Positions 6,256-55,489 of a stretch of DNA of 64,000 nucleotides are shown here, in pieces (the stretch's first letter is position 1; every line of letters starts with the position of its first letter). Source of the stretch: Candidatus Omnitrophota bacterium (GTDB taxonomy: Bacteria > Omnitrophota > Gorgyraeia > B26-G9); contig JAZDHZ010000034.1 of the NCBI GenBank assembly GCA_043805415.1, positions 101,478-165,477 on the forward strand, written 5' to 3'. Both the position numbers and the translations under genes were made by a program. The notes under the pieces were generated by a model. The model did not search any database, had not been told where the DNA came from, and worked only from the letters and a program-made list of their open reading frames with translations.

Positions 6256-9200
6256 ATGTTTTTTAGAAAAAGAAATAGTTATCGCGTTAAAATCACAACT
6301 TTTATTATTTTACAGTGTTTTATAATTATAAATAGTCAAAGTATTTTTGCCCAGGAACAGCGGATTGTTTTAAGCCGCCAGCAAACAAGTACTCTTTCTC
6401 CGCACTTAAGCATCGGAATGAACTTGATTCAAGCAATTTTTTCCGAAAAAAGTCAACAGCCGATTGCCGCATCCAATCTTCCCGGAACACTGATATCATT
6501 GCGTGATACCGGAAGTATCAAAGAATTATTAAGCGGCAAAGACGTATTTTTGAATGACCTTTGGGCTAGAAAAACCTTAGGAGTACCCACGGCAATCAGT
6601 AGCCTGCGCAGTGAAGATAATAATTTTGATTTATGGGATTGGGGAAAAGGGGACATGGGTGAATCCAGCCGCCAGCATATTTTATGGTTAGCCAAGAATG
6701 GCTTTTCCCGCTGGATGCGCTTACCTAACCGGAAAACCCGGGCTTTATTCGGAGACCCCAGCCCCTATGCTTCACGCAGCGCGTTTGCCGGGGAAGATTC
6801 GGATATTGCTGTGCCGGAAGTGGAGGAATTTATTAATTCAAAACAAGCGCAGGCTTGGTATGAGCAAAATAAAAACCGGATTAAGGATTTACATAATGCG
6901 AATAGAGTAAATGGAATGGAAGTAGCGAGATTGAAAAATGAGGCTTTGTGGCTGGCAATGGAGTATTTTAAAGAAAATCATTTAAATAAAAATACTTCGC
7001 GCGGTAAAGCTTTTGATAGTTTTTTAAATGATAAAGATAATGACTGGGTAAGTGAATACGCGGAATATATGGCCATAAGCGAATATTACTGGGATACAAA
7101 AAAAGCTGTTTTTTTTGAGATAAATGAAGATATCTGGTCAAACATCGACCAAAAATTAAAAGGCCTGGTGCATGACCTGAACGTGGCCATAAGCACTGAT
7201 AAAATTAAAGATGTCGGGCGTTTATATGAAATGATTGATGATTTTTTCGCGCAGTATTACCAGAATAGTATTGTGGCAAACGAAACCGATATCTTTAGAT
7301 TGAATATTTATCAGTCATTGCTGGACAAAATAAAACAGGGAATTTTAAAAGACCTTGTGCGGGGCAATATTAAATCGCTTGTTGAGGCAGATGAACCGGA
7401 ATGCGCGAAAATACTTTTGGATGGTTATGAGCGTTCCAAACAAGCGTTTCGCTATGATATCAAAGACGCGATTGGCCAGGAATGTATGGCTGACTGGAGA
7501 AATTGGGACAATGCCGGATTGGTGGAGCGCGATCCTATTGTTTTAGCCCAATTCCGGGAAAAACTGGAAGATAAAATATTGTTTCATAAGTACGCGCAGT
7601 TTATTTTTAATGAGCAGGAAAAAAACATGAAAGAATTTGCCAACAGCAATGGCATTGCCATAGAAGGAGATATTCCTTTTTATGTGTCAACCATAAGCTG
7701 TGAAACCTGGGTGTATAAAGATAAGATATTCCGGCTTGATCCGAAAAACCGCTATCAGCAGATGGCTGACAGCGGAGCGCCGCCAGACCAGTATGACCGC
7801 GAATACGGACAAAACTGGGGCGGGACTCCTTATTATATAAATGCGGCGTTTAAGCAATTTTTCTATAAACGCACAAAACATGAATTAAAGAACGCGGATG
7901 GTATCAGGATTGATCACTTCCGGGCGCTTAATGATTTCTGGGTAATTCCTCATGGCAAGCTTGGCCGGGACGGTAAGTTTGAAGATGGGCCAAAAGATGA
8001 ATTATTGCAGCCTTTGCTTAATCTGGCATTGGGACAGTTTAAACGTTTTTTTGCCGAAGATCTGGGCTCATATCTGGAAGGAGTCTGGGATCTGATGCGG
8101 GATAATGAAGTTAAGGGCTTTCGGGTAGCGATATTCGGCCATGGTGATGATGATGACATAGTTCATCGGCAATATTCCGGGCAGATTGCTTTTTCCGGCA
8201 CGCATGATACTCAGACCTGGTTTGGCGCTTGGAATCAATGGGATAGTGTTAAACGGAGAATATTCCTGGACAGGTTTACGCATGATGATATTCCGGAGAT
8301 TTGGCAGCGCTTAACATCTGAACAGAGAAAAGGGTTTTTAAAATACCTTAATTATTTAGTAAAGCAGTTAAAAGCAGATACAGCAAACATAAACAAACAT
8401 AGCGAGTTTCAATCTGAAAGCAAAGATTTTTTCACAGAGAATAATTTTAAAACGCAGTTGAAAAAAGTCCGCGTTATTACAAGGAGTTTGGTTGATCTTG
8501 AAGAATTGCCATTTGGCGTGCAAACCGCTGTTTTCGGAATCCTGGCTTTTTCCGAAGCAGATACAGTATTTCTGCCGATGCAGGATATATTCCGGCAGGG
8601 TGAAGAGTTTCGGATAAATGTTCCGGGCAGGCCCGGAGATTGGGGCTACCGCCATCCTTATACCGGACAGGAATTGAATAAAGCAATAAATGAAGAAATA
8701 AAAAAAGCTGATGAATTAATGCGGCTGCTGGCGCAAACTTCCGGCCGGGATGTTAGCGTGCCTTTGTACAAAAAAGGCCAAGGCGTGCATATTCTGGGTG
8801 TTTCTCCGGGTGTTAATGCCAAGAAGATGTGCAAACCAGGCGAGGAGTTTATTATCTGGGCGGCAGTACAGGGTGATAAACCAGCTAAGGTTAATCTGCT
8901 GACAAATATGCCTGAGCATAATGGCGCGTATCCTAAAGAACAGGCAGTGGCCATGGAATTAGTAAAAGAATTAAAGAGCGGAACCTATCTTTATGGAGTA
9001 AGAATAAGAGCAACACAGCCAGGCAAATGGGGAGTCGCGGTTGAGGCGGATAATGTAAGAGCCGGAGAGGTTAAGGAGAATACCAGTCTGGTTGTAAGCG
9101 CTTTGGATAAAATAGCGCCTTTGGCTAAAGAACAAGAAGCTGTGCTGCGGATCGCGGCCGGGATTTCCAAGGAAAAACTGCAAAGGATTTTAAATGAGTT

Positions 9201-11184
9201 GAATCCTGATTTGGCGCAGGCCCTGCGGCAGGCATTAAAAAATTATCAGGTAGAATATGCCGGTAATGATGAGGAAAAAATCATTAATCCCAGCGGACTG
9301 GATAAAGATTTATTATATGCGAATGTGAATTTAATCCGCGAAAAATTACTTAACCTTGATTACCAACAGTTAATCAAGGAAAATTATCCTGCTTTGAATA
9401 ATAAACTTATTGCTGAGTATATGAACAGGTCGGGATGGTATTCCGCGGCAGTGCCAAATAAAATAGCGCAGACTTTGCTTAATATCGCGGTTTTACCTGG
9501 AAATCCAGAGTCTGTTATGGAAAGTCTTACCACTATTCTTGGCCACGACAACACTATTAGCGGGGAAAAGCGGGTATTATTAGATCAGGCGTTTGCCAAT
9601 GCCGCCGCGATTGCTCATGACTCGGTATTTAGAAAAGGAGATTTGTTTGTCTTAAACAAGTTTAATGATCCTGAAGCTAATCAGAAGGTGCTGTCTTTTG
9701 CCCGGTATATGGGAAATGGCAGAAAGGCGATGGTAATCAGTAATTTCAATGACTCGCGCATTAACGGAACCCTTTTGCTCAATCAGCATAATTTTGACAA
9801 AATATTTAATATCTCCAGCACTCCAGGCAGTTATTATGCTTTGATTGACAGGGTAAGCGGAGAAATATACCTGCGTGAAGGAAAAGATTTGATCGCGCAT
9901 GGTTTGTATTTTGATCTTCCGGCTCAGTCCACGCATGTTTTTATGGTTCAGAGTTTACAGGATAATACAGCCAATGTTTTGCGGTCTAAATGTAATTATT
10001 ATAATGGCAAATCTCTGCCGCTGGAAGAAATTCTTTCGCTATTAAATAATTTTGGGCTGACTTTGGATTTTCCCTGTGTGGGAAAAACAGCGCGGGCTTT
10101 TGTTCTCCAGGGTCTTTTAAACAATGTTCCGGCAAATCAATTGATCCAGGCTTTTAAAAACAATCCGGAAATCAAGATAATCGAATTTGGGTTAAACCCG
10201 GCGGAAATCGCCGCTGAGATTAGCAAATTAGCGCAAGAGTATCAAGCTGATAAGCAAGTTCAGGCTTTATGCCAGGGCCTGCGGTTTTTAAATCAAAGAG
10301 GAGCATTAAATGAAATAAATCTTGTCCTGGTTTTAAATCAGGACAAAACATCAGTTGAGGCTGTTCAGTATTTTGATCATGGTTCAAAAAGCAGGAAAAG
10401 TTATTTGTATGTTAATTTGTCGCGGCTGAATCTGGATTCAAATAATAATTCTGAAACTAAACTTTCCGCCGCGTTAATAATCGGCGCGCGGATATCACGC
10501 CAAGGGTCGATCGCGGATTATGAATTAAGCCGAACCCTTAAAGCATTTTTAGCGCTTTGGGCGCGAGACGACGCGACTTTGCCAGGGTTAATCGACAGTG
10601 AACACAAAAGGATAAAAGGCATGTTGGAATATCTTGAAACAAATCTTAATTCAGTAATAGATGAATGGAAGCTGCCGTTTCATTATAACCTGGGACATGA
10701 TACGCTGTTAAGCCACTCTTTAAGGCGCGTAGTCATGGATTTGTTTTTAAAACAAAATACTGATAATCAAGTCAGTTTAGCCACTGTGCATAATTTTGCT
10801 TATTTCTTGGCGTATTATTTGGCTGATTCCGGACAGGCAGATAAGCTTCGCGATATTTTGCTTCAAGGATTTTCTGGAAAAAAAGCATCTTTTTATGAAC
10901 AATATTTTCTTACCAGCTTTATCTCCGGAGCACTGGTTTTAAGGGACAGCAGCATAGACGCGATTTTTATTGATTTACTGGAAAATCCTTTGCCGCAAAC
11001 GGATCTTGCCTTGCGGGAAAAAATTATAAAAACAATGTGCGGTCTAAACCGTTTTGATTTAAAATTAAACAAAATCTCAGTCAAAGAGTTGGGGGCGGTT
11101 CTCCAATCCGGCAAAGCTATTGAATCACTTCCTGAGGCAACAGTCGCGATCAGGCAGTATCAGGCGATTGGACAGGCGATTTAA
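6256..11184 (+). CDS. giant secreted protein (1642 aa): an N-terminal GH77 4-alpha-glucanotransferase (amylomaltase-type) catalytic domain fused to a C-terminal region of about 900 aa with unknown function
   Basis: Signal peptide. GH77 signatures: GDIPFYV, GAPPDQYDREYGQNWGGTPY, GIRIDHFRAL, AEDLGS and GTHDTQT. The C-terminal two-thirds has no recognisable motif. The C-terminus ends in the conserved IGQAI. Confidence 0.8.
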   Translation: MFFRKRNSYRVKITTFIILQCFIIINSQSIFAQEQRIVLSRQQTSTLSPHLSIGMNLIQAIFSEKSQQPIAASNLPGTLISLRDTGSIKELLSGKDVFLNDLWARKTLGVPTAISSLRSEDNNFDLWDWGKGDMGESSRQHILWLAKNGFSRWMRLPNRKTRALFGDPSPYASRSAFAGEDSDIAVPEVEEFINSKQAQAWYEQNKNRIKDLHNANRVNGMEVARLKNEALWLAMEYFKENHLNKNTSRGKAFDSFLNDKDNDWVSEYAEYMAISEYYWDTKKAVFFEINEDIWSNIDQKLKGLVHDLNVAISTDKIKDVGRLYEMIDDFFAQYYQNSIVANETDIFRLNIYQSLLDKIKQGILKDLVRGNIKSLVEADEPECAKILLDGYERSKQAFRYDIKDAIGQECMADWRNWDNAGLVERDPIVLAQFREKLEDKILFHKYAQFIFNEQEKNMKEFANSNGIAIEGDIPFYVSTISCETWVYKDKIFRLDPKNRYQQMADSGAPPDQYDREYGQNWGGTPYYINAAFKQFFYKRTKHELKNADGIRIDHFRALNDFWVIPHGKLGRDGKFEDGPKDELLQPLLNLALGQFKRFFAEDLGSYLEGVWDLMRDNEVKGFRVAIFGHGDDDDIVHRQYSGQIAFSGTHDTQTWFGAWNQWDSVKRRIFLDRFTHDDIPEIWQRLTSEQRKGFLKYLNYLVKQLKADTANINKHSEFQSESKDFFTENNFKTQLKKVRVITRSLVDLEELPFGVQTAVFGILAFSEADTVFLPMQDIFRQGEEFRINVPGRPGDWGYRHPYTGQELNKAINEEIKKADELMRLLAQTSGRDVSVPLYKKGQGVHILGVSPGVNAKKMCKPGEEFIIWAAVQGDKPAKVNLLTNMPEHNGAYPKEQAVAMELVKELKSGTYLYGVRIRATQPGKWGVAVEADNVRAGEVKENTSLVVSALDKIAPLAKEQEAVLRIAAGISKEKLQRILNELNPDLAQALRQALKNYQVEYAGNDEEKIINPSGLDKDLLYANVNLIREKLLNLDYQQLIKENYPALNNKLIAEYMNRSGWYSAAVPNKIAQTLLNIAVLPGNPESVMESLTTILGHDNTISGEKRVLLDQAFANAAAIAHDSVFRKGDLFVLNKFNDPEANQKVLSFARYMGNGRKAMVISNFNDSRINGTLLLNQHNFDKIFNISSTPGSYYALIDRVSGEIYLREGKDLIAHGLYFDLPAQSTHVFMVQSLQDNTANVLRSKCNYYNGKSLPLEEILSLLNNFGLTLDFPCVGKTARAFVLQGLLNNVPANQLIQAFKNNPEIKIIEFGLNPAEIAAEISKLAQEYQADKQVQALCQGLRFLNQRGALNEINLVLVLNQDKTSVEAVQYFDHGSKSRKSYLYVNLSRLNLDSNNNSETKLSAALIIGARISRQGSIADYELSRTLKAFLALWARDDATLPGLIDSEHKRIKGMLEYLETNLNSVIDEWKLPFHYNLGHDTLLSHSLRRVVMDLFLKQNTDNQVSLATVHNFAYFLAYYLADSGQADKLRDILLQGFSGKKASFYEQYFLTSFISGALVLRDSSIDAIFIDLLENPLPQTDLALREKIIKTMCGLNRFDLKLNKISVKELGAVLQSGKAIESLPEATVAIRQYQAIGQAI

Positions 11185-11185: not shown

Positions 11186-14100
11186 ATGTCAGGAATTTTT
11201 AAAACTAAAATTTTAAATAGATTTCTCTGTCTGGTTATTTTGCAGATATTTCTTGTTTCCAATTTTTCCTGGGCCGCGGATGATTTGCGCGCGAATGATT
11301 TAGTTTATTCCAGCGCAACGCTTTCTCCTTCGCTTCAAATCAGCGCTGATGCGCTAAAACAATATTTTGCCCAATCCTTTGATTTAAAAACCGCGGCAAA
11401 TATAGATCCGGTTATAAAAGATATTTGCTTAGAGCTGTATAAGGCCAAGGATAAAACCACAAAAATAGAAGTTCTGGCCCTTGAGCAAGGCTATAGAGTA
11501 AAGATCAGGACTCAGAGCAATACGCCGCTTGTTTTACATTGGGGGTTTAATAATTGGCAAAAGCCTTTTAAGGAAATCTGGCCCCAGGCAGAGAATATCC
11601 GCACTTATTTTGATGAGCAGACCAAAGCAATGCGGACCATAGTCGAGGCTTCAGCTGAGGGAGATTATGTTTTTAATATTGATATCCCCTGGGAATTAGT
11701 TTCAGGAATAAACAATATTGATTTCACCTTCTTTTGCCCAGAAACCAAAGAATATAAGAAAGCAATTGAAAATAAGGATTATGTTGTGCCGGTTTCTAAT
11801 GTCTTGAACCTGGCCTTGGCGCGCTTGGCTGAAAATGCCGGGGCAGATGATCCTGAAAAAAAGCACGATCTGCTTAATTTGATAAACAAAAGGCTGGCTG
11901 CGGCCAAAGATTCAGCGGAAATAGATGAAAACAATATTCCTTTGTTTTATGACGCGCATGAAAATATTATTACCCAGATTGTGAAAAACAAAGCAGGAAT
12001 CAGAATTGATTTCTGGGTTGTAAGTAATGAGCCGCTGGTTTTACATTGGGGAATAAATGATTGGCAGTTGCCGCCAAAAAGCATTTGGCCGGACCGGACA
12101 TTATATAAAACCCGGGCTTATGAAAAAAAAGCAGTGCAAACTCAGATGCATTTGGCTTCTAAAGACGGTTTGTACCAGACCTCGATTTACATCCCTAACC
12201 AGAATTTAAAAGAAGTTAAAAACATCAAGTACAATGTACATTATCCAAATAATGGGTATTGGGATAATAATAATGAAGAGGATTATAGTTTATCGCTGCA
12301 AGCCCAGGATCTTATAGCCGCTTTGCTGCCTTACGCGACAGGCAGATTCGCTGCCCACATAAACGCCAAACAAGCTCGCGGCTTGTTAAAGAACATGGCG
12401 TTTTTCTACGCTGAGAATATGAATTACACTGATTTGTTAAAGCTTTTTCAGGGGATGGAAGGCATTGCCCCTGGGGATGATCTTGAAAAAAAAGATGTTT
12501 TGGGATTAATCCTTATTGCCAAATTAATGAACGAAGGCGCGGTTTGGGATAGTGACAAAGCTAAGATTATTATCAGTAAACAAAAGATCAGCGCCGCGAT
12601 AGCGGAGTTGATTGATAAACTTGACCCCTTAAGTGTGCAGTGGGCATTATATATATTCGGACTGCTTGACCCTTCCTGGGTCTCAATCCTTACGCATCAG
12701 CTTGATTATAAGCAGATATACCAGGATGTGCAAAACAGCAAGATCAAAGACCTGCCGAAATTTATCCAAGGGATAATCAACAGTTATGATGATTTGGAAG
12801 GAGCGCCGCAGGTTCTTTCCGCTGAGAGTATTGATGAAACCTGCCTGATCATAAAATTGAAATTCAATGATCAGATCATCAGTACAAAATGGGGCTATCC
12901 GACAAAACAGCAAAAGTATTATTATCAAAATGGGATTTTTGAACTAAGAGATTTCGGGGGAAATGAATTTTCGCCGGTAGGCCGTAAGCTTTCGCGTTAT
13001 GTGGATAAAGAAGTGATAAAAACCCAGATCTCCAGGCTGCGTGGCAAAGGCAAAAAGGCGATTGTTGACGGAATTTCCTGGCAGTCTCCGGAAGCGCTTA
13101 ATTCGGATAATTATATGTATTATCATCATAGTCTGCTGGAAAAAGACGCGGATGTCAGGAATTTATTGCTTTCCCGTGGTTCTTCCACGATCTTAGAACT
13201 TCCGGACGGGAAAAAAGCCTGGGTATTTCATCGGCCTGATTCATCAGATCAGCTTTCGCCTAATCTTAAATTCGGAACAAAGGCAGCGGAATACTGGAGA
13301 AATTATTGGCTGGAGTATTATAAATATTTTATCAATGAATTTGACGTGGATGGATTCAGGGTGGATTTACCCGGAGAGTTGAATCATCATGGAGATTATT
13401 CGGTATTTAAGAGTGTTTGTTTTGATATAGTGCGGTACGCGGCGGCAAAAGGCAAAAAAATATATTTTATTTTAGAAACATATCATGGGTACGCGAATAT
13501 CTGGGGCTGGGATGAGTTTTCCGCGTTAAATCATGATCCGCAGATAGCGCAATACGGCTATAAACCTTTCCGCTGTTATTATAAGCCGGTAATGACCAGT
13601 ATTTACCGCGGCAGCGCGTTTGATCTAAGAGCTGCTTTTGAACGCATAGCCGGCAGTGTTCAGGAATTGGTTATTTCAATTACTAATTTTGACGAGAAAA
13701 AAGCCGAGGATATTATTCCTGAAAAACAAAGGCTTAAGCGTTATATGGAGCTTTTGTATAATTTTGCCCGCGCGGGATTTGATGTAATGATTTATTTACG
13801 GGATTTAGGTCTGGGCGATATTTTGCCGATGTGCGGCGGAGATCGGGTTCTCTGGGGCGGAAAGCTGAGGGTTGTGGCGCATAAGCCGGCTACTCCGCGT
13901 CAGTTTCGGCAGAGATTGGAGCAAAGCACAGGCGATTTGCTTGAACAATCTCCTTTATATCAGGCGTTTAAAAAATCGCCGCAAAGCCCCTTATCGCGGC
14001 TGTTCTTCCGCGGCAATAAGTTAGTTTTTTATCAGCCGGGAAAAACTCCGGAAGTGTTTGATCTGGATAAGATGGCTAAGCCTGCTCCACCGGTAAAAGT

Positions 14101-15142
14101 TATGGACAGTGAGGAGGATATAAATATTTGGCTGCAGCAGCAGGTTTATTCATTAACAAATAATGAGCCGCAAACCCAAGCCTTAAGAGAAATTGAAAAT
14201 ACTTTAAAACGATTTAAGCATAGTGCAAGTGCAATGGCGGGAAAAGCTGTTTTGGCTCTGGTCTGTTCTGAGACTAAGAATTTCGCGGTTTGGGATCAGG
14301 CAAAAGGCCAAACTCAATGCCTGCGCATGCCGGTAAATAAAGTATTGGCCATAAAAAATGACCATGCTTTTGTTGTGGATATTAAACAAGCTGGCAAAAG
14401 CGAATCCCGCAGAATCCCGGCGCTGCAAATCAAGCAAAGCGGCAAATATTTGGCAATGGTTTTTGGCTTGGCTCCGGGTAAATACAGGTTTAATTTTTTG
14501 TGGCAGGAAAAACATGAAAACCAGGGCTGGGAAGAAGGCAATGGCTATGAGCTTGAAGTCAGTTCTCCGAAGACCGGGCAACCAGAGCTGGCGGTCTATA
14601 TCCCGCGTTTATCCGCTGAATATTTAAGGGATTGGGATGAAATGTTTTATCAGGCAAAAGATGCTGGCCGCAATCTGCTGACCGGAGATATGCTTACAAA
14701 GGGAATGCTTGAAAATATAGAATCCTCGATTGATTTTACCCTGCGTTATGAGTATGGCCGGGAGATTTTAGAACAAATTAAAGACAAAAAGAAAAAGCAG
14801 GTTTTCAATATTTTATATAATCAAATTTCGCAAAACCCGCGAGGCCGATACAGTTTACTGCATCATCACCATGAAAAAGATTTTTTTAAATTAGCGGAAA
14901 CTGTGCTTGAGAGTATCCCGGGTTTAGCAAGACCAGAGGCAGCCCCAATATGGCAATATTTGGACGCGCTCAAACAAGCGGATAATCCTGACCAAGGAGA
15001 ACAAAGCCAAATAGCCGTAAATATAAAACTGCTTGGTTTTATGTCTGGTTTGTTCGCGCAGATCGAAGCCCTGTCCGCGGCTAAACCCCTTGAGCTTTGG
15101 CTTAATATTGAAGCGGAGTTTTTGATTGGACAGGCAATATAG
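11186..15142 (+). CDS. giant secreted protein (about 1318 aa) with two tandem starch-binding-like repeats (LHWG(F/I)N(N/D)WQ motif, CBM45/CBM25-like) and a GH13-like region (DVDGFRVDLPGE, ILETYHGY); putative alpha-glucan-active enzyme
   Basis: The start is the ATG at 11186, 2 nt after the stop of the previous gene. The listed ORF start at 11120 overlaps that gene and has no RBS. Motifs were recognised by eye. The C-terminus ends in LIGQAI. Confidence 0.5.
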   Translation: MSGIFKTKILNRFLCLVILQIFLVSNFSWAADDLRANDLVYSSATLSPSLQISADALKQYFAQSFDLKTAANIDPVIKDICLELYKAKDKTTKIEVLALEQGYRVKIRTQSNTPLVLHWGFNNWQKPFKEIWPQAENIRTYFDEQTKAMRTIVEASAEGDYVFNIDIPWELVSGINNIDFTFFCPETKEYKKAIENKDYVVPVSNVLNLALARLAENAGADDPEKKHDLLNLINKRLAAAKDSAEIDENNIPLFYDAHENIITQIVKNKAGIRIDFWVVSNEPLVLHWGINDWQLPPKSIWPDRTLYKTRAYEKKAVQTQMHLASKDGLYQTSIYIPNQNLKEVKNIKYNVHYPNNGYWDNNNEEDYSLSLQAQDLIAALLPYATGRFAAHINAKQARGLLKNMAFFYAENMNYTDLLKLFQGMEGIAPGDDLEKKDVLGLILIAKLMNEGAVWDSDKAKIIISKQKISAAIAELIDKLDPLSVQWALYIFGLLDPSWVSILTHQLDYKQIYQDVQNSKIKDLPKFIQGIINSYDDLEGAPQVLSAESIDETCLIIKLKFNDQIISTKWGYPTKQQKYYYQNGIFELRDFGGNEFSPVGRKLSRYVDKEVIKTQISRLRGKGKKAIVDGISWQSPEALNSDNYMYYHHSLLEKDADVRNLLLSRGSSTILELPDGKKAWVFHRPDSSDQLSPNLKFGTKAAEYWRNYWLEYYKYFINEFDVDGFRVDLPGELNHHGDYSVFKSVCFDIVRYAAAKGKKIYFILETYHGYANIWGWDEFSALNHDPQIAQYGYKPFRCYYKPVMTSIYRGSAFDLRAAFERIAGSVQELVISITNFDEKKAEDIIPEKQRLKRYMELLYNFARAGFDVMIYLRDLGLGDILPMCGGDRVLWGGKLRVVAHKPATPRQFRQRLEQSTGDLLEQSPLYQAFKKSPQSPLSRLFFRGNKLVFYQPGKTPEVFDLDKMAKPAPPVKVMDSEEDINIWLQQQVYSLTNNEPQTQALREIENTLKRFKHSASAMAGKAVLALVCSETKNFAVWDQAKGQTQCLRMPVNKVLAIKNDHAFVVDIKQAGKSESRRIPALQIKQSGKYLAMVFGLAPGKYRFNFLWQEKHENQGWEEGNGYELEVSSPKTGQPELAVYIPRLSAEYLRDWDEMFYQAKDAGRNLLTGDMLTKGMLENIESSIDFTLRYEYGREILEQIKDKKKKQVFNILYNQISQNPRGRYSLLHHHHEKDFFKLAETVLESIPGLARPEAAPIWQYLDALKQADNPDQGEQSQIAVNIKLLGFMSGLFAQIEALSAAKPLELWLNIEAEFLIGQAI

Positions 15143-17668: not shown

Positions 17669-20600
17669 ATGTATTTTAAAAAGCTCGAACTCTTTGGATT
17701 TAAATCTTTCGTTGATAAAACAACTCTTATTTTTGAACCAGGCGTAACCGCGATTGTTGGCCCCAATGGTACAGGAAAAAGTAATATTTCTGACGCGATT
17801 AAATGGGTATTGGGAGAACAAAGTGCCAAGTCTATGCGTGGGGCAAAGATGGAAGATGTTATTTTTAATGGCACAGAAACCCGCCCTCCGGTAAATATGT
17901 CAGAAGTTTCGCTGACGCTTTCTAATGAAGAAAGAGTTTTGGCGATTGATTATGATGAAGTAACTGTAACCAGAAGGCTTTATCGCTCAGGAGAAAGTGA
18001 GTATCTTCTTAATAAAACCCCGGTTAGGTTAAGAGATATAAATGAACTATTAATGGGCACTGGCATAGGCACGGAATCGTATTCTTTGCTCGAGCAGGGC
18101 CGGATTGACGCGATTATTAGTTCCAAGCCGGAAGAACGCAGAGTGGTGTTTGAAGAAGCCAGCGGCATTACCAGATATAAGAAACAAAAAAATGAGGCAA
18201 TGCGCAAGCTGCAGGCAACAGAAGAAAACCTTTTACGGGTTAATGATATAATTGTAGAGGTTAATCGTCAGTTAAATTCCATAGCGCGTCAGGTAAGTAA
18301 AGCGCGCCGCTTTCAGGAAAATTTTGATGAACTTAAAACATTAGATACGCAGTATACATACCTTCAATATAAACAGCTTAAGGAAAAAAATGATTTACTT
18401 GCCAGTGAAGAGACTGCTTTTCATGCTGAGCAGGCGGGATTAGAAAAAGAGCTTGCTGTTTTTTCTGAAGAGTTTGACGCCTTAAAAGTAACCCTTTCTG
18501 AAGTGGAACATAATTACAGTCACTTGAACAATCAATTTGTCAGGACTACTTCGCAGATTGAGCAGAATGTTCACGCTGTGTCCATTAATAATGAACGCAT
18601 CCAGGAATTCAGCCAAAGAGTGCGGGATTATAACCGCGATCTGGAAAACTCCCAAAAGAAAATCAAAGAACTGCAGGAGCAGATAAACCAACTGCAAATC
18701 CGGATTTCCGCTTTTTCCGACGAGAAAAGCGCGAAAGAACTTAATTTAAATTTACGCCAGACAACAATCGCGGAAATTGAAAACCAAATAAAACTCGCGC
18801 AAAAATCCGGAGAAGAAAACCGGATCGTGGCGGTAAAATTACTCAGTGAACACGCGCAGATTAAAAATGAACTGGCCAAGCTTTCGGCGAATATCAGCAA
18901 TGCTAACGCGCGCTTATTGCGGCTTAATCAGGAAAAAGCGAAAACTAATCAGGAACGCGAGAAGATTGACGCGGAATTAAAAAGCAAAATAGCGGAAGTT
19001 GAAAATTTAAGAGGTAAGGTTAATAAAGAAGAAGGCGACGCTCAGAATCTTAAAAATAATTATGAAGAGCTTAATACTCAGATAAAAGAGCTGGAAGTAA
19101 ATATCCAAGACAGCAAGCAAGCTTTAGTCGGCTGTAAATCCCAGCTGGAAATGCTGGAAAGATTGAGCAAGGAATACGAATGGTTTTCCAGCTCAGTGAA
19201 ATCATTTATGCTCCAAAAAGAAAACTATCCCGAAGCTTTTGCCGGAGTCCATGATGTACTGGTAAATCTTATGGAGGTAAAGCCGGGATATGAAGTTTGC
19301 GTGGAAACCGCGCTAGCCGAATACTTGCAGGCCGTTGTTGTTGATAGCCGACAAGTGGCTTTAAGGCTGAGAGAATTTCTTAATCAGCATAATATCGGCA
19401 GAATTCGGTTTATTACTCTGGATTCAATTCCGCAAATAGCTAATCAGCAGTCTCAGATTGAAAATACAAAGAATTTTTTAGAAGTAATTACCTGCGATGA
19501 TAAATACGCGAAAGTTTTAGCGTTTCTGGTTAAGAACACTTTTATTTTACAAGAAAATATTTTTGACAATCCGTCAAATCCTTTGACTAATATCAAAGAT
19601 ACGCTGAGTGCTGAGCCAGATGCTTCTGGCTTGCTTGAAGCTGAGCTTTTGTTTTCTTTTAAAACAAACGCGGCCAATAGCGTTAAAATAGTCGGCGATT
19701 TTAATCGATGGAATGCTTCTTTTGACAGTGATCTGGAACGCAAAGACACGGAGCTTTGGCAAAAGGTTCTAAAGCTCGCGCCAGGACGCTATACTTATAA
19801 GCTGGTGGTTGATGGCCAATGGATCATTGACCCGAACAATCCGCTTAAAGAAATAGATGTAAACGGACATGAAAACTCAGTTATCGAAGTGCTGGCAAAA
19901 TCCCAGGATGCTTTGGTTGCTGAGGCTGATAAGCCGGCGGCATTTGATTTTAATTTTCTGGAAACGCTGGTGAGTATGAGCGGCGAGCTGCATTCAACCG
20001 CGGGATTAATCAGCCGGCCGGTTGCTGACCAGACAACAGGCCTGTTTTATCAAAAAGCAAAAATAAGGCAGCTTAAGCAGGAAAGTGTCGGCCTGGAACA
20101 AGCCGTAGTTAAATATAAACAAGAAATCGACACTAAAATCCAGCAGCTTAAGTTTGTGGAAACAGAATTTACTCAATTAAATGATGCTTTGCACGAAGAA
20201 AAGATTAGTCTGGCGAATCGGGACTCGGAAAAATCCAGTATTGAAATAAACCGGAAAAAACTTGTGGATGAGCTTTTAGTCATTGATCTGGAAATTGATG
20301 AAACAACTCTTGATGTTCAGGAGTTTGAAGAAAAAGAAGCGGCTAAGAGAGCTAGGCTGAGCATTGTGGATCAGGAAATAGTCGGCAATGAACAGACAAT
20401 GGCAAGTAATCATCAATTGATCGGGATAAAAAACAAGGAGCGGGAAGAGCTTTTAGTTATTATCGCGGAAATGAAAACAGAATTTTCTTTGCTCAATGAA
20501 CAGGAAGAATCTTTAAATCAGAGTTTTTCAATGCTGTATAATACGCTCAAAGAATTAACCCTGAACTCGGAAGAATTTGTCCGGTATAAGGATGAGAGTA

Positions 20601-46275: not shown

Positions 46276-46731
46276 ATGGAAAAAAAAATCATTGCGTCTA
46301 ATAAGCGGGCAGCGCATCGCTATGAGATTATTGAAAAAATCGAAGCTGGCATTGAATTGCAAGGCACAGAGGTTAAATCACTCAGAGCCAATCAGGTTGA
46401 CTTAAAAGACAGCTTTGCCAGAATTGACGGCGGACAGATTTTTTTGCATAGTTTATACTTAAGTCCCTATGAAAAAGCAAGTTATAATAATGCTGATCCC
46501 AAAAGAGTCAGAAAGCTTTTACTGCATAAAAAGCAGATTACCAAGCTGTTTGCGAAAATGCGGGAAAAAGGCTATACTTTAATAGCTTTGAATATTTACT
46601 TTAATGATAAAGGCCGGGCAAAAGTCGAACTGGCTTTGGCCAAAGGCCGCAAATTGTACGATCAGCGGGAAAAGATTAAAGATAAAGAAACTGAACAGCG
46701 TTTGCGCAAGATAAGCAGCATTCGGAAATAA
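46276..46731 (+). CDS. smpB: SsrA-binding protein SmpB
   Basis: NKRAAHRYEIIEKIEAGIELQGTEVKSLRA...; about 150 aa with a basic C-terminal tail. Confidence 0.9.
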   Translation: MEKKIIASNKRAAHRYEIIEKIEAGIELQGTEVKSLRANQVDLKDSFARIDGGQIFLHSLYLSPYEKASYNNADPKRVRKLLLHKKQITKLFAKMREKGYTLIALNIYFNDKGRAKVELALAKGRKLYDQREKIKDKETEQRLRKISSIRK

Positions 46732-46819: not shown

Positions 46820-47251
46820 GGGGGTGAAGGGTTTCGACTTATGTGGATGTTATAAGGGCAGCATGTCGAGGTGGTCGGGAGGCCTCGTTAAACACCTGGC
46901 AAAATAATAAATGCTGAAACTAAAGTTCCAGTAAGTGTAGATGCACTTCTTGAGAGAATTGGATCGGGCATTGCTCATCCGACTTTCACAGGATTTGTAC
47001 CTGCAGCAGTGTTACTTTAATAAAATAAAGTAACCCGTTTTTTGGCCTTTTGTCTGGGGGGTCAGAGAACGTCATTTACAGGCTCGCTTTACCTGGTTGG
47101 TTTTTGACAGGTAAGGTTAAACACTCAAAAGCTGCCTGTTTAAGTACCTCGCCTATTGGGGATTTAAACAGAAAGATAAACAATAGGCTAAACATGTAGA
47201 TACTCTTATTTGTCGCTTAAGGACGCGAGTTCGATTCTCGCCACCTCCACC
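46820..47251 (+). ncRNA. ssrA: tmRNA (SsrA)
   Basis: 5' GGGGGTGAAGGGTTTCGAC pairs with the 3' end GGACGCGAGTTCGATTCTCGCCACCTCCACCA (tRNA-Ala-like acceptor/T-arm). GCAUGUCGAGG..GGCCUCGUUAAA resembles the E. coli pseudoknot-1 region. The internal tag reading frame ends in tandem TAA TAA (47018-47023) and is located immediately after smpB. Confidence 0.85.
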
Positions 47252-47261
47252 AAATAAACAA

Positions 47262-48990: not shown

Positions 48991-51357
48991 ATGAGAAAGT
49001 TTAAAAATATTTTCATAAAGGTACTTATAGCAGCGTTTCTGTTGCAGACGCCATCTGCTTTTGCGTTGAAAAGTGCCCAAGACAGTGTATGTGCCAACGC
49101 GGGTACAGTTTTTCTGGCGCCTTATCTGACCATTGATGCCACATCAATTCAAACGAGTGCCTCCAAACTATATGATTTTTCCCAACAGGCTGCTTTACAA
49201 CCTGTTCTCGAAACTCTTACAGATAATTTCGGATGGCCGGAAGAGATTGCTGTTTCTGTTAGCCAGCGAGTGGCGTTTACACTCAGTCAAACAGAGACAT
49301 CAGTAGATTATCGGCCGGATATTGCCATTATTGCTACCGCGACTACGTCAGATCAACAGTATATCCGTTATGTTTTTCCGTTAAACCAGGAAAATTCTAT
49401 TAGCGTGGTTGATCAAGACATGAGGATAATCCGTTTTGTCTGGAATGGAAACGAGTTATCAATCGCGGAAATTGGAACAGGGGATCGAGGAACTGTGCGC
49501 TATGCGGATCAACAGATGCTTTTATCGCTTAAGGATCACATTAAAGATAGAATGGAAGAACTGCTTAAAAGAGATTCTGTAACATTAGAAGACTTGCAAG
49601 AATTATTGTGGATGGACCCCCTAACTTTTTTAAAAGACCAAGACTATGAGCCGCGACCCTTAGAAAACGACGAAATATTTTTTCTCATGAAGCGTTTAAA
49701 CGATTTATTCTTTGAATTGAAGGTTGATGATCCATGGGTTCTTCCCAAGATTAACGATCCTAATGCTTTGGCGGCAGATGATCCGTATCACCTGTTAACC
49801 TCCAGACGACGTGTCCAGATTGATGAGCGTGTTGTTGATCATGGAATTTTGTTTGAAGCAATGAAGTTAGAAGCTGATGAGTTTGCTCTGTTTCTCGCTC
49901 GGGATGCGATGAGCGCGCATGAATTTATCACCCATCTGCAAACCTTACAAGGCAACTCACAAGCCCTGTCAGGATTAGTTTATCAGCCAGGGCTTCGCAG
50001 CGCGTTTCAAACTGATTTTGACAAGAAACATAAGCGGACAGCATATGTGGATGAGGAAAGTTTAGAACATACCATGAGAAGAATAACCCAGGCTTTTCAG
50101 GGCACTTTGCAAAAATTGGGAAAGCCTGTTCAGAGAATAACCCGAGGCGAGGCTGATAATAAAGAATTTAACGCTGATGAATACAATGAGTTTTATTCGC
50201 TTTTTAAGCAGAAAATAATCGAGCTGATTAATTCCGAAGAGCATGTTCGCAAAGAATCGGAACTTATATTGAACCAGATAAAAAGAGCGATTCATGGAGA
50301 TTTTAAGAAGATCCGGGTTATTGATTTGGATGCGACAGGGAAAACAGCGCTTTATGTAAGAGCGGTTATTGAGTATTATGCTGAGAAGGGAGAGCTTGAT
50401 GTGGAGAGCGCTGAAGTATTTATCGGCAACGGACGTGGAAGCTCGGTAAATGTTCCCAAGGTGCGTCAAGGCGCGACAGACCCTCAGGTGAGTTTTGTTG
50501 ATTTGAACTGGCCATTTATTGCTGAGCAAAGAGATGCTGCTACGGGAATGGTTAACTTTAGAGTTACTAAGTCTCGCTATCGCTTCCTTGAGCTTACGTA
50601 TCAGAGTTTGCGTTTGTACAATGAAGCAATCAGTTTTTTTGAAAACGGGCAGAAAGGCTCAGTGTCCAGGCTTTCAAAGAAAGAGAATGCGAAGGCGTCC
50701 AAAGCTAAACCAAATAATATACTGGATATGACAAAGTATGAATTTTTAAACCAGTATCAGAGAAACGGGTTTTTCCGTCCAGGGTTTTATGGAAGCAAAC
50801 GATTGGCAATTGAAGCGCGGCTCAATGAGTGGTTTGGAAAAGGTAATTGGCAGGAGCGTTATGCGATCAATGGGAATCTTAGTACTAAGGATGAGATGCT
50901 TGTGTTTTATGAAGATGCCTATGTCGCGTATTTACGGGATAATAGTCCTCTAGCCACTTGGTTGGAAGAAACAGCAATCGACGTATTTGATAATAGTACA
51001 TCTAATCTGGATAGCAGGATGGATTATTCCATTCAGGAAACGACAAGCAACCATTACCAGGATATTGCTATACGCAGAGCATTTGATCGTTTAGGCAAAA
51101 GTTTTGGAGGTTCTGAACTGATTCAAGTTCGCGGAAAGGATTCGAAAGGGGCTAAATTAAGTCCAGGGGTGGTACCTTTTAATAAGCCGTATCTGCTTTT
51201 CAATCCTCCGCTCAAAGGTTGGTGGAACAAAGGTTCTATCGAAGAATTTTTGCAAAGCTCAAAAGTTATTGTTATCCTGCCGGCTACCTTTAATATTGAA
51301 ATAAAAAGTGCTGTTCAATACAGCAGAGAGCAGTTTGTTATCGAGCATTCGATATAA
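48991..51357 (+). CDS. hypothetical secreted protein, 788 aa (C-terminus ...IEHSI)
   Basis: Signal peptide MRKFKNIFIKVLIAAFLLQTPSAFA; no recognisable domain. Confidence 0.45.
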   Translation: MRKFKNIFIKVLIAAFLLQTPSAFALKSAQDSVCANAGTVFLAPYLTIDATSIQTSASKLYDFSQQAALQPVLETLTDNFGWPEEIAVSVSQRVAFTLSQTETSVDYRPDIAIIATATTSDQQYIRYVFPLNQENSISVVDQDMRIIRFVWNGNELSIAEIGTGDRGTVRYADQQMLLSLKDHIKDRMEELLKRDSVTLEDLQELLWMDPLTFLKDQDYEPRPLENDEIFFLMKRLNDLFFELKVDDPWVLPKINDPNALAADDPYHLLTSRRRVQIDERVVDHGILFEAMKLEADEFALFLARDAMSAHEFITHLQTLQGNSQALSGLVYQPGLRSAFQTDFDKKHKRTAYVDEESLEHTMRRITQAFQGTLQKLGKPVQRITRGEADNKEFNADEYNEFYSLFKQKIIELINSEEHVRKESELILNQIKRAIHGDFKKIRVIDLDATGKTALYVRAVIEYYAEKGELDVESAEVFIGNGRGSSVNVPKVRQGATDPQVSFVDLNWPFIAEQRDAATGMVNFRVTKSRYRFLELTYQSLRLYNEAISFFENGQKGSVSRLSKKENAKASKAKPNNILDMTKYEFLNQYQRNGFFRPGFYGSKRLAIEARLNEWFGKGNWQERYAINGNLSTKDEMLVFYEDAYVAYLRDNSPLATWLEETAIDVFDNSTSNLDSRMDYSIQETTSNHYQDIAIRRAFDRLGKSFGGSELIQVRGKDSKGAKLSPGVVPFNKPYLLFNPPLKGWWNKGSIEEFLQSSKVIVILPATFNIEIKSAVQYSREQFVIEHSI

Positions 51358-52823: not shown

Positions 52824-52914
52824 TCAAATCCTCTTGCCTGGATATACGGGGGCACAATTGAAAATGCATGGATGCAATCCTTAATTATCCAATCATGTTT
52901 TTTTAACAAACTAA

Positions 52915-53146: not shown

Positions 53147-55489
53147 ATGATTTATCAAATAAGAAAATTTATTTTATTGCTCCGATTTATATGCCTAATC
53201 CTGGGACAGTTATTGCTGATTAATGGCTTTGCCTGGGCAGGGCAGATGAATACTTTGTCTCCGGTAGCAGTTGTAAGCAATGCTAATTTTAAAAAAGCTT
53301 TTGATGATAATTTAGACGAGATATACGCGCTTAATAATAAAATTAAAAGCATCAAACAGGTTTATAGCATGATCACGGAATTAGATGCTTATCCGGGTTT
53401 TACCCGAATGCTTGATTCAGATGATGGATACAGAGATATCGGCATTTTTCTGGTTTCTGATCTTGATGAGGTAAATAAAATTATAAACATATTGCCAGTA
53501 GATAAACATTCTGAGGTTTGTGAGCTGGGCAGCGGCATTGGTAATGTCAGTGCTTTATTTGCCGCCAGAGGGGCAAATGTAATTGGTTATGAAATTGACC
53601 AAAAGCTGGTATGGTTAAGTAATAATATAGCGCAAATTGATTTAAAAGATATTCTTGCTCCGGAAAGAATAAAGTTTGAGCGCGCGAATTTTTTAAGCAA
53701 GGATCTTTCTAAATTTGACATTATATTCTATTACTGGAACAGCATGGTTTCTGAATATAAAGATGAGCTGCAGAATAAAATTTTAAAAGAACTTAAGCCC
53801 GGTGCTTTATTGGTATTGTTCGGGGTGAGCAAGGATAAAGCATATTTCTCGGGATTAAAAGAGATGACTGGCTTACCGGGCTATGAATCAATAAGCGCGT
53901 ATGCCAAGGTATATGCGCAGCCGGATAAACCTATTGCCCAAACCAATGAACAATCAAAGCTGCAATCATTTCGCGATGATTTAGATTCGCCGGATACAGA
54001 GGCGCGTTTGCAGGCAGCGCTTGCTTTAGCGCAAAGCAAGCATGCTGATGATAAAGCATACGCGATTATTAAGGAATCAGCAATTAATAAAAACTTAACG
54101 CTGAATGAAAGAATAAGAGCGGCGAGATTCTTAAGCGATTCAGACCGGATGGAATATGCCGGGCAGCTTATAAGCGATGAACAACAGTTTGCCAGAATAG
54201 AACGCGACGATAAAAAAGACTTTGACAGTTTGGAGCTATCAGCGGCAAGTCTAGAGCAAGTTCAAGGGCAAATAAAAATGATATCAGGCATAGATAAGCA
54301 AGTTGCTGATGAACTTATGCTCAAGGCGGGTAAACTTGCTTTTTTAAGTGAGGAGCTTTCCCGGCTTAGTAACGCGATAAGATATTTTGAGGGAAATTGG
54401 CATGCGCTTTTAGAGGAAAAACTGGATAGCGAATATGGCTATGCCAAAGAAGTAAATGAGGCAATGATCGCGGACGATATGCTAGGGGTTGAGCTTTTTA
54501 ATGCCGTAGATTATGTAAAAGCTTATTTGGTTTGCCAAAAGTTAATATCCCGGCTTAGAGATAAAGGGATAATAGTTATGGGCGGAGATAGAGAATGGTT
54601 TTTGCTTGAGGCTTTTCAGTATATTTTTAAGAGAAATTATACAATGGAACAAGCAGAAAAGATGCTGGAAAATAAATGGGAAGTATCAACAGCGGCAATA
54701 AGAGCAAAAGAAATATTTAAAGATTTAATAACAATTGGCCTTAGCCCGAGTGGGTTTATGTCAGAAGTGAAAATAGGATTTTTCGCTAATACGGCGCAGC
54801 AGTTCATCTATCGGGGTTATGACGACGCGAATCATCTTGAATACGCGCCCGGCCCGAATTATGATGCCAGAAATATTTCCATTGGAGTGGAGAACAATAT
54901 TGGTTCAGTAAATGCCATGCACATTAATCTTGGGGTGCCCTGGGCCTCAAAATATATCTGGGCATCATATTTGGCATTGCATAATTTTATTGATTCAAAT
55001 ACTATGGCCAAAGGTTATTATGATTATTTTTATGATCAGCAAATCAAAGACAGCAGTCAATTATTCCCCGGCCAGCGCAGGGTTTCTTATATCGGGGTTT
55101 GGACCGAAGACCTTGATGATCTGGATTCAATAATCGAGACTTTTGTGCCCTTGAGCATTGGTTTAAATAATTATATGTCAAAAGAAAATCCGGAAATAGC
55201 GGAAATCTGGAAAACTTTTAGAATCGAATTTGAAGAGATTATAAATTCGCAAAATGATCAACAGTTAAAAACGGAATTTTTTGAACAAGCCAGGATGGTA
55301 AGATTCGTGGAATTGATATCGGAAAAAAATCGCGGCAATATTTTTTACCAGCAAGTTGAAAATCTTATTCAAAAAACAATCAAACAAATTAATCATAATC
55401 TCGCGAATCAAAACAAGAATCAGGCTTTAATCAAACATTCCCCGGAATTTCTTCAATTTCCAGAAACCGCGGTACTTAATTCAATTTAG
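53147..55489 (+). CDS. secreted protein (780 aa) with class I SAM-methyltransferase domain and HEAT/PBS-lyase-like repeat. The leader is paralogous to the giant proteins.
   Basis: Leader MIYQIRKFILLLRFICLILGQLLLINGFAWA. MTase motif I VCELGSGIGNVSALFAARGANVIGYE. The C-terminus ends in VLNSI. Confidence 0.5.
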   Translation: MIYQIRKFILLLRFICLILGQLLLINGFAWAGQMNTLSPVAVVSNANFKKAFDDNLDEIYALNNKIKSIKQVYSMITELDAYPGFTRMLDSDDGYRDIGIFLVSDLDEVNKIINILPVDKHSEVCELGSGIGNVSALFAARGANVIGYEIDQKLVWLSNNIAQIDLKDILAPERIKFERANFLSKDLSKFDIIFYYWNSMVSEYKDELQNKILKELKPGALLVLFGVSKDKAYFSGLKEMTGLPGYESISAYAKVYAQPDKPIAQTNEQSKLQSFRDDLDSPDTEARLQAALALAQSKHADDKAYAIIKESAINKNLTLNERIRAARFLSDSDRMEYAGQLISDEQQFARIERDDKKDFDSLELSAASLEQVQGQIKMISGIDKQVADELMLKAGKLAFLSEELSRLSNAIRYFEGNWHALLEEKLDSEYGYAKEVNEAMIADDMLGVELFNAVDYVKAYLVCQKLISRLRDKGIIVMGGDREWFLLEAFQYIFKRNYTMEQAEKMLENKWEVSTAAIRAKEIFKDLITIGLSPSGFMSEVKIGFFANTAQQFIYRGYDDANHLEYAPGPNYDARNISIGVENNIGSVNAMHINLGVPWASKYIWASYLALHNFIDSNTMAKGYYDYFYDQQIKDSSQLFPGQRRVSYIGVWTEDLDDLDSIIETFVPLSIGLNNYMSKENPEIAEIWKTFRIEFEEIINSQNDQQLKTEFFEQARMVRFVELISEKNRGNIFYQQVENLIQKTIKQINHNLANQNKNQALIKHSPEFLQFPETAVLNSI

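Follow-up and report, generated by a model that had tools for sequence, protein, structure and literature searches.

The stretch of DNA analysed here (hereafter the window) comprises 64,000 nucleotides (nt) of contig JAZDHZ010000034.1 from a Candidatus Omnitrophota bacterium and contains 36 open reading frames (ORFs) of at least 150 amino acids (aa), almost all of them on the plus strand. Its SMC protein (17669..21625) is 62-88% identical to those of four Candidatus Omnitrophota metagenome-assembled genomes (MAGs), the next best match reaching ~33%. Nine of the encoded proteins carry, wholly or in part, a two-part N-terminal module, which is the subject of this study. Judging from its sequence, this module is a signal of the Sec/signal peptidase I (SPase I) type, with the family consensus FKIIAhhLIQAFLhhDhAWA|GG, followed by a linker of ~14-17 aa and a second block, 'TL(S/A)PxhxI(N/D)xxxhQxxF'. 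A first-pass annotation had drawn attention to a leader shared by five of these genes (6256, 11186, 29258, 32603 and 53147). The start positions of all five and their quoted N-termini are correct, and the identity of ~70% given for the leaders of 29258 and 32603 was reproduced (23/33, 70%). The FAWA-type ending ascribed to the leaders is present in 11186 (NFSWA) and 53147 (GFAWA), but not in 6256 (...IIINSQSIFA). All five have the full module, but the count was too low, as six proteins of the window carry it complete (48991 being the addition) and nine carry the second block. These nine proteins are 248-2,979 aa long, and therefore not all of them are giants, as had been proposed.

The second block, overlooked by the first-pass annotation, was found by aligning the N-termini of all window proteins having an N-terminal hydrophobic segment. 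It follows the pattern (T/F)L(S/A)PxLxI....(F/I)(Q/K)xx(F/Y), lies 2-19 residues past the predicted cleavage site and is present in nine genes (3063, 6256, 11186, 26245, 29258, 32603, 41723, 48991 and 53147). All nine occurrences are downstream of the hydrophobic segment, in nine of the 17 proteins that have one. The pattern, which was defined post hoc, has 9 matches in 1,925 N-terminal positions versus one in 16,544 body positions. In a leave-one-out procedure, seven of the nine held-out members outranked every other six-frame ORF, the failures being 26245 (rank 38) and 32603. Considering the window alone, the similarity of the leaders is moderately above that of ordinary signal peptides, with best ungapped 16-aa matches averaging 6.4 versus 4.9 (Mann-Whitney P~9e-4, for pairs that are not independent). 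A hidden Markov model (HMM) of the family, built from an alignment of 108 sequences including seven of the window's own modules, separates the window copies into two tiers: full modules (32603, 29258, 11186, 6256, 53147 and 48991) and block-only copies (26245, 41723 and 3063).

The full module of gene 6256..11184 (module at 6256..6441, plus strand; 45.3 bits, HMM positions 1-68) heads a protein of 1,642 aa with a GH77 4-alpha-glucanotransferase body (Pfam E=4e-77). It is composed of a divergent leader ending in SIFA (aa 1-32, 6256..6351), a linker of 13 aa and the block TLSPHLSIGMNLIQAIF (6391..6441). The next one (11186..11368, plus strand; 54.7 bits) belongs to gene 11186..15142, whose 1,318-aa product has an Ig body of the glucan-water-dikinase (GWD) type (Ig_N_CWD1, E=1e-16) and is the same protein as P0005 in the database; its leader covers aa 1-30 (11186..11275) and is separated by 14 aa from the block TLSPSLQISADALKQYF (11318..11368). 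Gene 29258..32560 encodes 1,100 aa with no known domain and carries its module at 29258..29461 (plus strand; 61.2 bits), with a leader at aa 1-32 (29258..29353), a 19-aa linker and the block TISPAIQVTEASIQTLF (29411..29461). The identical database protein is a hypothetical protein of a Candidatus Omnitrophota MAG, with only two distant homologues; one homologue (P0002, 37% identical) has retained the module. The longest carrier of the window, gene 32603..41542 (2,979 aa; module at 32603..32791, plus strand; 76.2 bits), has about seven more transmembrane (TM)-like segments, followed by UPF0489, cNMP-binding and GGDEF domains. Its leader (aa 1-31, 32603..32695), 15-aa linker and block TLAPKISLNTQEVWDAY (32741..32791) are retained as a module in the orthologues of loci L001/L082 and in P0006. 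The module of gene 48991..51357 (788 aa, no known domain) is full but divergent (48991..49161, plus strand; 27.7 bits, E=3e-8, HMM positions 6-70), with a leader at aa 1-25 (48991..49065), a 15-aa linker and the block FLAPYLTIDATSIQTSA (49111..49161). Finally, gene 53147..55489 (780 aa, S-adenosylmethionine (SAM)-methyltransferase domain at aa ~103-238) has its module at 53147..53302 (plus strand; 32.6 bits), in which a linker of 4 aa joins the leader (aa 1-31, 53147..53239) to the block TLSPVAVVSNANFKKAF (53252..53302).

The three block-only copies are also on the plus strand and follow ordinary signal peptides. Gene 3063..3809 (248 aa, GNAT acetyltransferase), the start codon of which was set from the database protein P0120, matches only the block part of the HMM (3063..3182; 11.7 bits): an ordinary signal peptide (aa 1-21, 3063..3125) is followed by 2 aa and the block ALSPRLSLDKTTFQGYL (3132..3182), and the orthologue in locus L002 retains NTLSPRLNLDRTAFQTYL. 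In gene 26245..27012 (255 aa, body without assigned family; 26245..26409, 12.7 bits, HMM positions 35-67), the weakest member, an ordinary signal peptide (aa 1-28) and a 10-aa linker precede the block CLSPFLRIINSDFQSRF (26359..26409). In gene 41723..43429 (568 aa, TTG start, body without assigned family; 41723..41872, 12.5 bits, HMM positions 25-69), the signal peptide spans aa 1-27, the linker 6 aa and the block is FLSPVSNIDLGSLQKTF (41822..41872). As the block is also found behind an unrelated signal peptide in a 641-aa protein of locus L088, it is separable from the leader. Beyond these nine genes, the 196-nt gap between 41723 and the following GH116 gene contains a short ORF (43432..43520) with a leader-like start (KIFKKIVIFILIQ, 11 bits) and without the TLSP block, which from its sequence could be either a chance match or a decayed leader remnant.

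The bodies behind the module are unrelated. In an all-against-all BLASTP comparison of the nine window proteins, similarity is confined to residues ~1-72, and their Pfam content is different in every case: GH77, GWD-type Ig, methyltransferase, GNAT, and UPF0489 with cNMP-binding and GGDEF domains, with no family for 29258, 48991, 41723 and 26245. No solved relatives of the 29258 and 48991 bodies were found in the PDB, and the 11186 body gave only marginal matches to the amylase family. Across the family described below, the 106 bodies with a length of 250 aa or more group into 68 unrelated clusters, of which 57 are singletons and one contains 20 representatives. Because the bodies are unrelated, the module genes do not constitute a paralogous family. 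The module cargo ranges from 55 to more than 7,400 aa, and the module also heads giants of 6,383 and 7,410 aa. The domains represented include SAM methyltransferases, GGDEF, cNMP-binding, GT1/trehalose synthase, AAA+, HTH, protein kinase, patatin and HD domains, together with glutamate dehydrogenase, PGI, PGM, PGK, UDPGP, GH77 and phosphoenolpyruvate (PEP)-utilising enzymes. P0068 (1,527 aa, probably partial) combines the module with a full-length SecY (382-704, E=4e-36) and SecA DEAD/preprotein-binding domains (1006-1524), and by its domain content is predicted to be a fused SecY-SecA-type translocase. No further TM-like segment is present in 58 of 129 members.

The housekeeping exported proteins of the window (GH26, DUF4139, peptidase-MA/TPR, a GH-family hydrolase at 51738 and AmiC) and its lipoproteins (47937 and 55738) lack the module, and SurA, a secretin, a Wza-like exporter and TPR proteins encoded elsewhere have plain signal peptides without it.

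A profile of the nine window modules was searched exhaustively against 1.84 billion representative proteins and retrieved 131 matches at E<=1e-3, eight of them at E<=1e-10. This number is a lower bound, since a nine-sequence profile is weak; it includes ~7 of the window's own proteins and three obvious false positives with internal repeats. In nearly all of the 131, profile positions ~1-65 were aligned to target residues ~1-65, in targets of 55-3,711 aa. The suggestion of the first-pass annotation that the conservation exceeds what a generic Sec signal needs was borne out, the family consensus being far sharper than the window copies. It is this support from outside the window, the profile matches and the sharper consensus, that is decisive for judging the observation real. 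Among the 114 members matching both regular-expression anchors, a choice that somewhat inflates the percentages, the leader has Lys/Arg at -8 (97%), Gln (96%), Phe at +2 (91%), Leu at +3 (85%) and Asp/Asn at +6 (88%), then A-W-A and G-G. The block reads Thr (64%), Leu (98%), Ser (58%) or Ala (41%), Pro, x, h, x, Ile/Leu (89%), Asn/Asp/Ser, xxx, h, Gln/Lys (74%), xx and Phe/Tyr (90%). The distance from the Gln of the leader to the Leu of the block is narrow (median 26, 10-90% range 23-28). These features support a dedicated, lineage-specific N-terminal element on unrelated proteins. In ~14% of members, the residue before the block Leu is Cys instead of the usual Thr ('DCLSP', 'ECLSP', 'TCLSP'), as in P0022, P0051, P0053-P0057, the window protein 26245 and L082 17419.

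Among named members, the module is confined to Omnitrophota. This is based on 20 clusters that were looked up, about half of them with names, where all named members are Candidatus Omnitrophica/Omnitrophota, with the exception of one 2.4-kb partial contig binned as 'Pacebacteria', which is a mis-binned fragment. A metagenome scan with three close leaders returned a single locus (L082). No Pfam-A or NCBIfam model covers the module in the nine window proteins or in 99 + 10 family members, even consensus-like ones. A profile search of the PDB with the module gave spurious designed proteins only; a word-indexed homology search with the module alignment (9 or 108 sequences) gave no match, the module being too short for the index; and the strings LIQAFL and IQAFLV do not occur in the searchable literature. 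Two preprints on long and giant Omnitrophota proteins report predicted signal peptides and TM segments (bioRxiv 10.1101/2023.11.21.568195, 10.64898/2026.06.07.730766). In the text searched, they describe no conserved leader or post-signal motif, with 'motif' occurring 0 times in 10.64898/2026.06.07.730766 and 'leader' 0 times in 10.1101/2023.11.21.568195. The two-part Omnitrophota N-terminal tag is therefore apparently previously undescribed.

The anatomy of the first part resembles that of a signal peptide. In 119 members, the n-region has a net charge of +3.5 and is positive in 100%, while the 20 residues past the core have an average charge of -1.4, at or below zero in 93%. The hydrophobic core consists of 13 residues between the Lys/Arg at -8 and the Asp/Asn at +6, with a mean Kyte-Doolittle hydropathy of 2.67. 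Assuming cleavage after A-W-A, position -3 is Ala in 57%, Ser in 15% and Val in 7%, position -1 is Ala in 72%, Cys in 14% and Ser in 5%, and position +1 is Gly in 53% and Ala in 22%. Under the positive-inside rule and the -3/-1 rule, such features are those of a textbook cleavable N-in/C-out Sec signal peptide.

An AlphaFold2 model computed from the 108-sequence alignment (mean pLDDT 75) comprises a leader helix at 2-25 (~90), a coil that takes in the linker and TLSPxhxh, and another helix, at 52-68 (~85), that begins directly after the conserved Asp/Asn. Since the pTM is 0.34, no confident packing of the two helices is predicted. The block is an extended 'TL(S/A)P-x-h-x-(I/L)' stretch whose Asn/Asp caps an amphipathic helix, 'xxxhQxxF'. 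Its interpretation as the first element of a shared folded domain was discarded, as similarity stops at residue ~72 and the model shows a coil and one helix without confident packing.

In the orthologue pair of 32603, the block is the most constrained segment, with a ratio of nonsynonymous to synonymous differences per site (pN/pS) of 0.23 at a saturated pS of 0.83; the linker, with a pN of 0.51, ranks with the least constrained. Compared with P0006, the module is 74% identical versus 58-62% for the neighbouring body. The leaders of unrelated window genes have pS values of 0.54-0.71 with the protein sequence kept, and DNA similarity among window leaders is limited to 29258..29300 versus 32603..32642 (88% over 43 nt, starting one base ahead of the ATG and covering the first ~14 codons). 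In the 32603 orthologue pair, the leader has a pS of 0.24, versus 0.55-0.86 elsewhere, and the first ~37 residues of P0067 and P0084, which are adjacent in locus L091 (10001.. and 18364..), are the same. The near-identity of adjacent leaders, together with the low leader pS, suggests local 5'-end gene conversion or constraint at the nucleotide level.

Some members contain further signal-like elements downstream of the module. In 32603, aa 95-127 (32885..32983) form a textbook-looking twin-arginine translocation (Tat) signal, SRRAFFK followed by a weakly hydrophobic stretch and SAPAEA, ~40 residues past the module; similar RRxFF segments with hydrophobic stretches are found in P0006, P0031, P0072 and P0091. 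In P0008, P0009, P0012, P0019, P0036 and P0045, which are related to the body cluster of 32603, a second Sec-signal-like element (aa ~85-125) lies ~35 residues past the TLSP block and consists of a basic stretch, a hydrophobic run and ASPALxxAS...QAPPAIT; a simple two-TM hairpin is at odds with the positive charge on the upstream side of this element. To judge from their sequences, these downstream signals may be vestigial, the module having been grafted ahead of older signals.

The genomic context of the module was surveyed in loci retrieved by seeding on module genes, and the frequencies of arrays given here are therefore biased upward. Module genes are consecutive in several of them: four in L082, five in L090, five in L083 (one encoding a GT1 glycosyltransferase of 830 aa and another a PEP-utilising enzyme of 1,108 aa) and six in L091, which is syntenic with the window (long genes, GH116, smpB, amiC and murI). 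In L084, five of nine genes have the module, among them those of a PGK-containing protein of 1,323 aa, a HEAT protein and a PGM + methyltransferase protein, and the start of the 6,383-aa giant with a SecA domain, which adjoins the four others; in L092, the module is on a 7,410-aa AAA giant. In one case, a secretin locus is located upstream of a family member (P0131). Small PilZ-domain genes flank long module genes in L084 (4184..4600 and 7492..7851), L088 (15971..16384 and 20107..20475) and L081 (6880..7284), and none was detected among the window ORFs scanned. The two preprints likewise place giant genes near loci resembling type II secretion systems (T2SS) or type IV pili, secretins, pilZ genes and giants with SecA domains (bioRxiv 10.1101/2023.11.21.568195, 10.64898/2026.06.07.730766). 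For the 445-aa neighbour of P0067, which bears the module, a weak precomputed Peptidase_A8 label was not confirmed when Pfam was scanned directly, and this protein was dropped as a candidate processing enzyme.

Other features of these loci are worth recording. In the window, L090 and L091, the arrays of long module genes are closed by a conserved GH116 glycosidase gene (43626..45791 in the window), with smpB next in the window and in L091. In the window, smpB (46276..46731) is followed by a tmRNA gene (46820..47252, tag ALLERIGSGIAHPTFTGFVPAAVLL), and the order GH116-smpB-amiC-murI is common to the window and L091. A promoter and terminator scan of ~25.6-43.7 kb was uninformative, with promoter-like sites at chance level. 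A stand-alone GGDEF gene (21658..22350, minus strand) adjoins a 156-aa ORF without Pfam match (22381..22851). Another ORF of 156 aa (5456..5926) matches only the C-terminal part of the penicillin-binding protein transpeptidase domain (profile positions 106-296 of 299) and may represent part of a broken gene or an ORF whose start was wrongly called. A different N-terminal signature, IP..(Y/W)G.I.(E/D)...(I)I.IQD(A/L)HC(N/D), follows plain signal peptides at 27275..28969 in the window, in P0003 (L081 7659..13190) and in L088 (320..5359 and 5620..7254), in long Omnitrophota proteins adjoining module or pilZ genes; by sequence, it may represent a second N-terminal signature family.

Known classes of export signal were compared with the module. 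The features expected of a Sec/SPase I substrate are present in the sequence: a basic n-region followed by a neutral or acidic region, a core within ~7-15 residues and small residues at -3 and -1. A lipoprotein signal (SPase II) was rejected, as only 14% of members have Cys at the cleavage position and the residue ahead of this Cys is Trp (A-W-C), in conflict with the lipobox [LVI][ASTVI][GAS]C. A Tat leader was rejected on account of single Lys/Arg positions without an RR consensus and a strongly hydrophobic core, and a type IV prepilin (class III) signal because the consensus contains no G|FxxxE and no N-methylation-site family is among the Pfam/NCBIfam matches. The YSIRK, KxYKxGKxW and ESPR motifs are absent from the consensus, and no such model is among the matches listed for the 9 window and 99 + 10 family members, partly the top families only. 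As for double-glycine/C39 leaders, only 37-53% of members have Gly-Gly after AWA, the hydrophobicity of the leader is strong and the window contains no C39 domain or ABC exporter; published work reports C39 domains on some Omnitrophota giants, which leaves some room for a link with the module.

In the accessory Sec system (SecA2/SecY2) of Gram-positive cocci, serine-rich-repeat glycoproteins such as GspB carry an extended signal peptide of the KxYKxGKxW type and an AST domain, which the dedicated route requires. The module resembles this arrangement in its specialised conserved signal peptide, a brief stretch of conservation early in the mature protein, the very large cargo and the presence of paralogous SecY/SecA components, here the module-bearing SecY-SecA fusion (P0068) and the giants with SecA domains. 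The segment analogous to AST would be the conserved block, ~16 residues past the predicted cleavage site and under purifying selection, with a putative role in export. In contrast, there is no sequence similarity and no KxYKxGKxW match, Omnitrophota are a diderm phylum of the PVC group instead of Firmicutes, the cargo consists of dozens of unrelated enzyme-bearing proteins rather than one glycosylated adhesin, and the link between leader and SecY/SecA is here only putative.

The second comparison concerns eukaryotic pathogens. Plasmodium PEXEL (RxLxE/Q/D) and oomycete RxLR are short motifs located ~15-40 residues after a signal peptide. The module shares their grammar of signal peptide, short variable spacer and short linear motif (the median Gln-Leu distance being 26), as well as diverse bodies (68 clusters), gene arrays, a predicted predatory or parasitic organism and bodies that would be sensible inside another cell (kinase, patatin, glycosyltransferases and methyltransferases). 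In contrast, the route would be the bacterial Sec pathway and not the eukaryotic endoplasmic reticulum, and the motif TL(S/A)PxhxI(N/D) is unrelated, so that this is an analogy and not membership. We know of no equivalent of the plasmepsin V protease for the Omnitrophota module. Delivery of the module proteins into prey is purely conjectural.

Other bacterial signal peptides that bear motifs are YSIRK-G/S, the ESPR of autotransporters and the lipoprotein export signal of Bacteroidota. They share with the module a lineage-restricted conservation in or just after a Sec signal, adding sorting information past the inner membrane. In contrast, their motifs are different and none of their models matches, the module of Omnitrophota is made up of two separable blocks whose spacing is narrowly distributed, and it is found on cytoplasmic-type enzymes and giants rather than on adhesins, autotransporters or lipoproteins. 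The published reports of signal peptides and TM segments in Omnitrophota concern the same class of proteins and the same neighbourhoods (pilZ, secretin/T2SS-like loci, SecA giants, and methyltransferase, GNAT, GGDEF and sugar-metabolism modules). By analogy, the module would work most like accessory-Sec signals and, in its grammar, like PEXEL/RxLR, and it is a member of none of these systems.

Our results lead us to lean, with modest confidence, towards the module being a dedicated export signal and sorting tag for the long-protein class of Omnitrophota, possibly using SecY/SecA-type translocases, with a second step read from TL(S/A)P. The module exists, its extent is delimited and its two parts are modular; its cleavage, route, receptor and destination are what we infer. 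In this mechanism, the first part would target the nascent chain to the inner membrane in an N-in/C-out orientation, probably co-translationally, because the core is very hydrophobic and the cargo large. Translocation could involve a dedicated SecY/SecA-type translocase encoded inside module-bearing proteins, and SPase I would then cut after AWA. The second part, now ~16 residues from the new N-terminus, would act as a linear tag for sorting, recognised by a second component, which would set the fate of the protein past the inner membrane: retention at the surface, release through a T2SS/Tad-like system such as that beside giant genes, or delivery into prey. For polytopic members, 32603 being an example, the leader would start membrane insertion and later TM segments would return the C-terminal signalling domains to the cytoplasm; this picture is coherent, as the seven further segments of 32603 would bring both UPF0489 and the cNMP-binding and GGDEF domains back to the cytoplasm.

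Several observations weigh against this export-and-sorting interpretation. The bodies are overwhelmingly of cytoplasmic type, needing ATP, GTP, SAM, NAD(P) or nucleotide sugars, and fit poorly with a location in the periplasm or outside the cell, unless their site of action is the interior of another cell. For the same reason, the description of the module proteins as secreted, made in the first-pass annotation, is uncertain. A second hydrophobic segment, 45-130 aa past the Gln, is present in about 40 of 119 members; the charge is +1.5 before it and +0.5 after it, and this upstream positive charge is at odds with a first segment that is simply N-in/C-out. In the ~250 kb sampled, no candidate receptor or peptidase was seen repeatedly beside module genes; the association with SecY/SecA-type domains and secretins is anecdotal and not a phyletic correlation, and the link with pilZ is anecdotal too. 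In addition, the window copies are divergent from the family consensus, and cleavage, export and a receptor are all putative.

Among the other explanations, the module could be an uncleaved membrane tether whose block makes a juxtamembrane contact for oligomerisation or docking, the bodies being held at the cytoplasmic face through an odd topology or working in an unusually active periplasm. Cytoplasmic-type domains, including the central-metabolism fusions (PGM+PGK+UDPGP and the PGK-containing 1,323-aa protein), would suit such a location, and many members are polytopic, including the SecY-SecA fusion, which must be membrane-embedded. A published DeepTMHMM survey also classified 46% of Omnitrophota long proteins as 'TM-only' with cytoplasmic bodies, and implausible 'outside' localisations are remarked upon in both preprints (bioRxiv 10.1101/2023.11.21.568195, 10.64898/2026.06.07.730766). 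Nevertheless, a 13-residue core between conserved Lys/Arg and Asp/Asn is too short for a stable anchor, and a canonical small-x-small site (A-W-A) and Gly-Gly come after it. The charges of +3.5 before and -1.4 after the core imply that even an uncleaved anchor would leave the bodies of single-segment proteins outside, and 58 of 129 members lack any further TM-like segment. We regard the tether as doubtful, if the least so of the alternatives. Of similarly low probability, and marginally less likely still, is a dedicated delivery route in which the leader would address a specialised SecY/SecA-type translocase and the TL(S/A)P tag would send hundreds of cytoplasmic-type enzymes, giants included, into prey or host cells.

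The near-identity of adjacent leaders (29258/32603 and P0067/P0084), the unusually low leader pS in the 32603 orthologue pair and the vestigial-looking Sec/Tat signals downstream in some members, as if the module had been grafted on, would also be expected if an ordinary Sec signal peptide had been homogenised by 5'-end duplication or gene conversion, that is, by concerted evolution. This appears improbable, since the module is kept among representatives of 50%-identity clusters from many metagenomes and MAGs, and most window copies lack DNA similarity, with the leader pS of 0.54-0.71 noted above. The block, moreover, lies outside the signal peptide, is under strong purifying selection (pN/pS 0.23) beside a freely varying linker and occurs behind unrelated signal peptides as well, and the housekeeping exported proteins of the same genomes have ordinary signal peptides. 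Recombination would account for the movement of the module, but not for the retention of specific residues. Least credible of all is the possibility, raised in the first-pass annotation, that a family of giant paralogous exoproteins has recently expanded here, the leader being its best-preserved ancestral part. The genes are clustered on one strand, several are very long and one body cluster has 20 representatives, but the confinement of BLASTP similarity to the first ~72 residues, the wholly different Pfam content and the 57 singletons among 68 body clusters refute it for the window and leave it next to no probability for the family.

The Omnitrophota, a phylum that is widespread and uncultivated, are ultra-small bacteria that probably live as predators or parasites and encode the longest bacterial proteins known. 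Published topology predictions for these puzzling proteins place ATP-, SAM- and NAD-dependent enzymes outside the cell. The module marks the long-protein class and is absent from housekeeping exported proteins, thus providing a direct experimental handle on the destination of these proteins, and a model of it would serve annotation, as this sequence feature is outside the current Pfam and NCBIfam. If the reading of delivery into prey were true, the module would be the bacterial equivalent of the PEXEL and RxLR signals that target proteins to a host, and the presence of a signal peptide on kinases, patatin, methyltransferases, glycosyltransferases and enzymes acting on glycogen and sugar phosphates would be explained.

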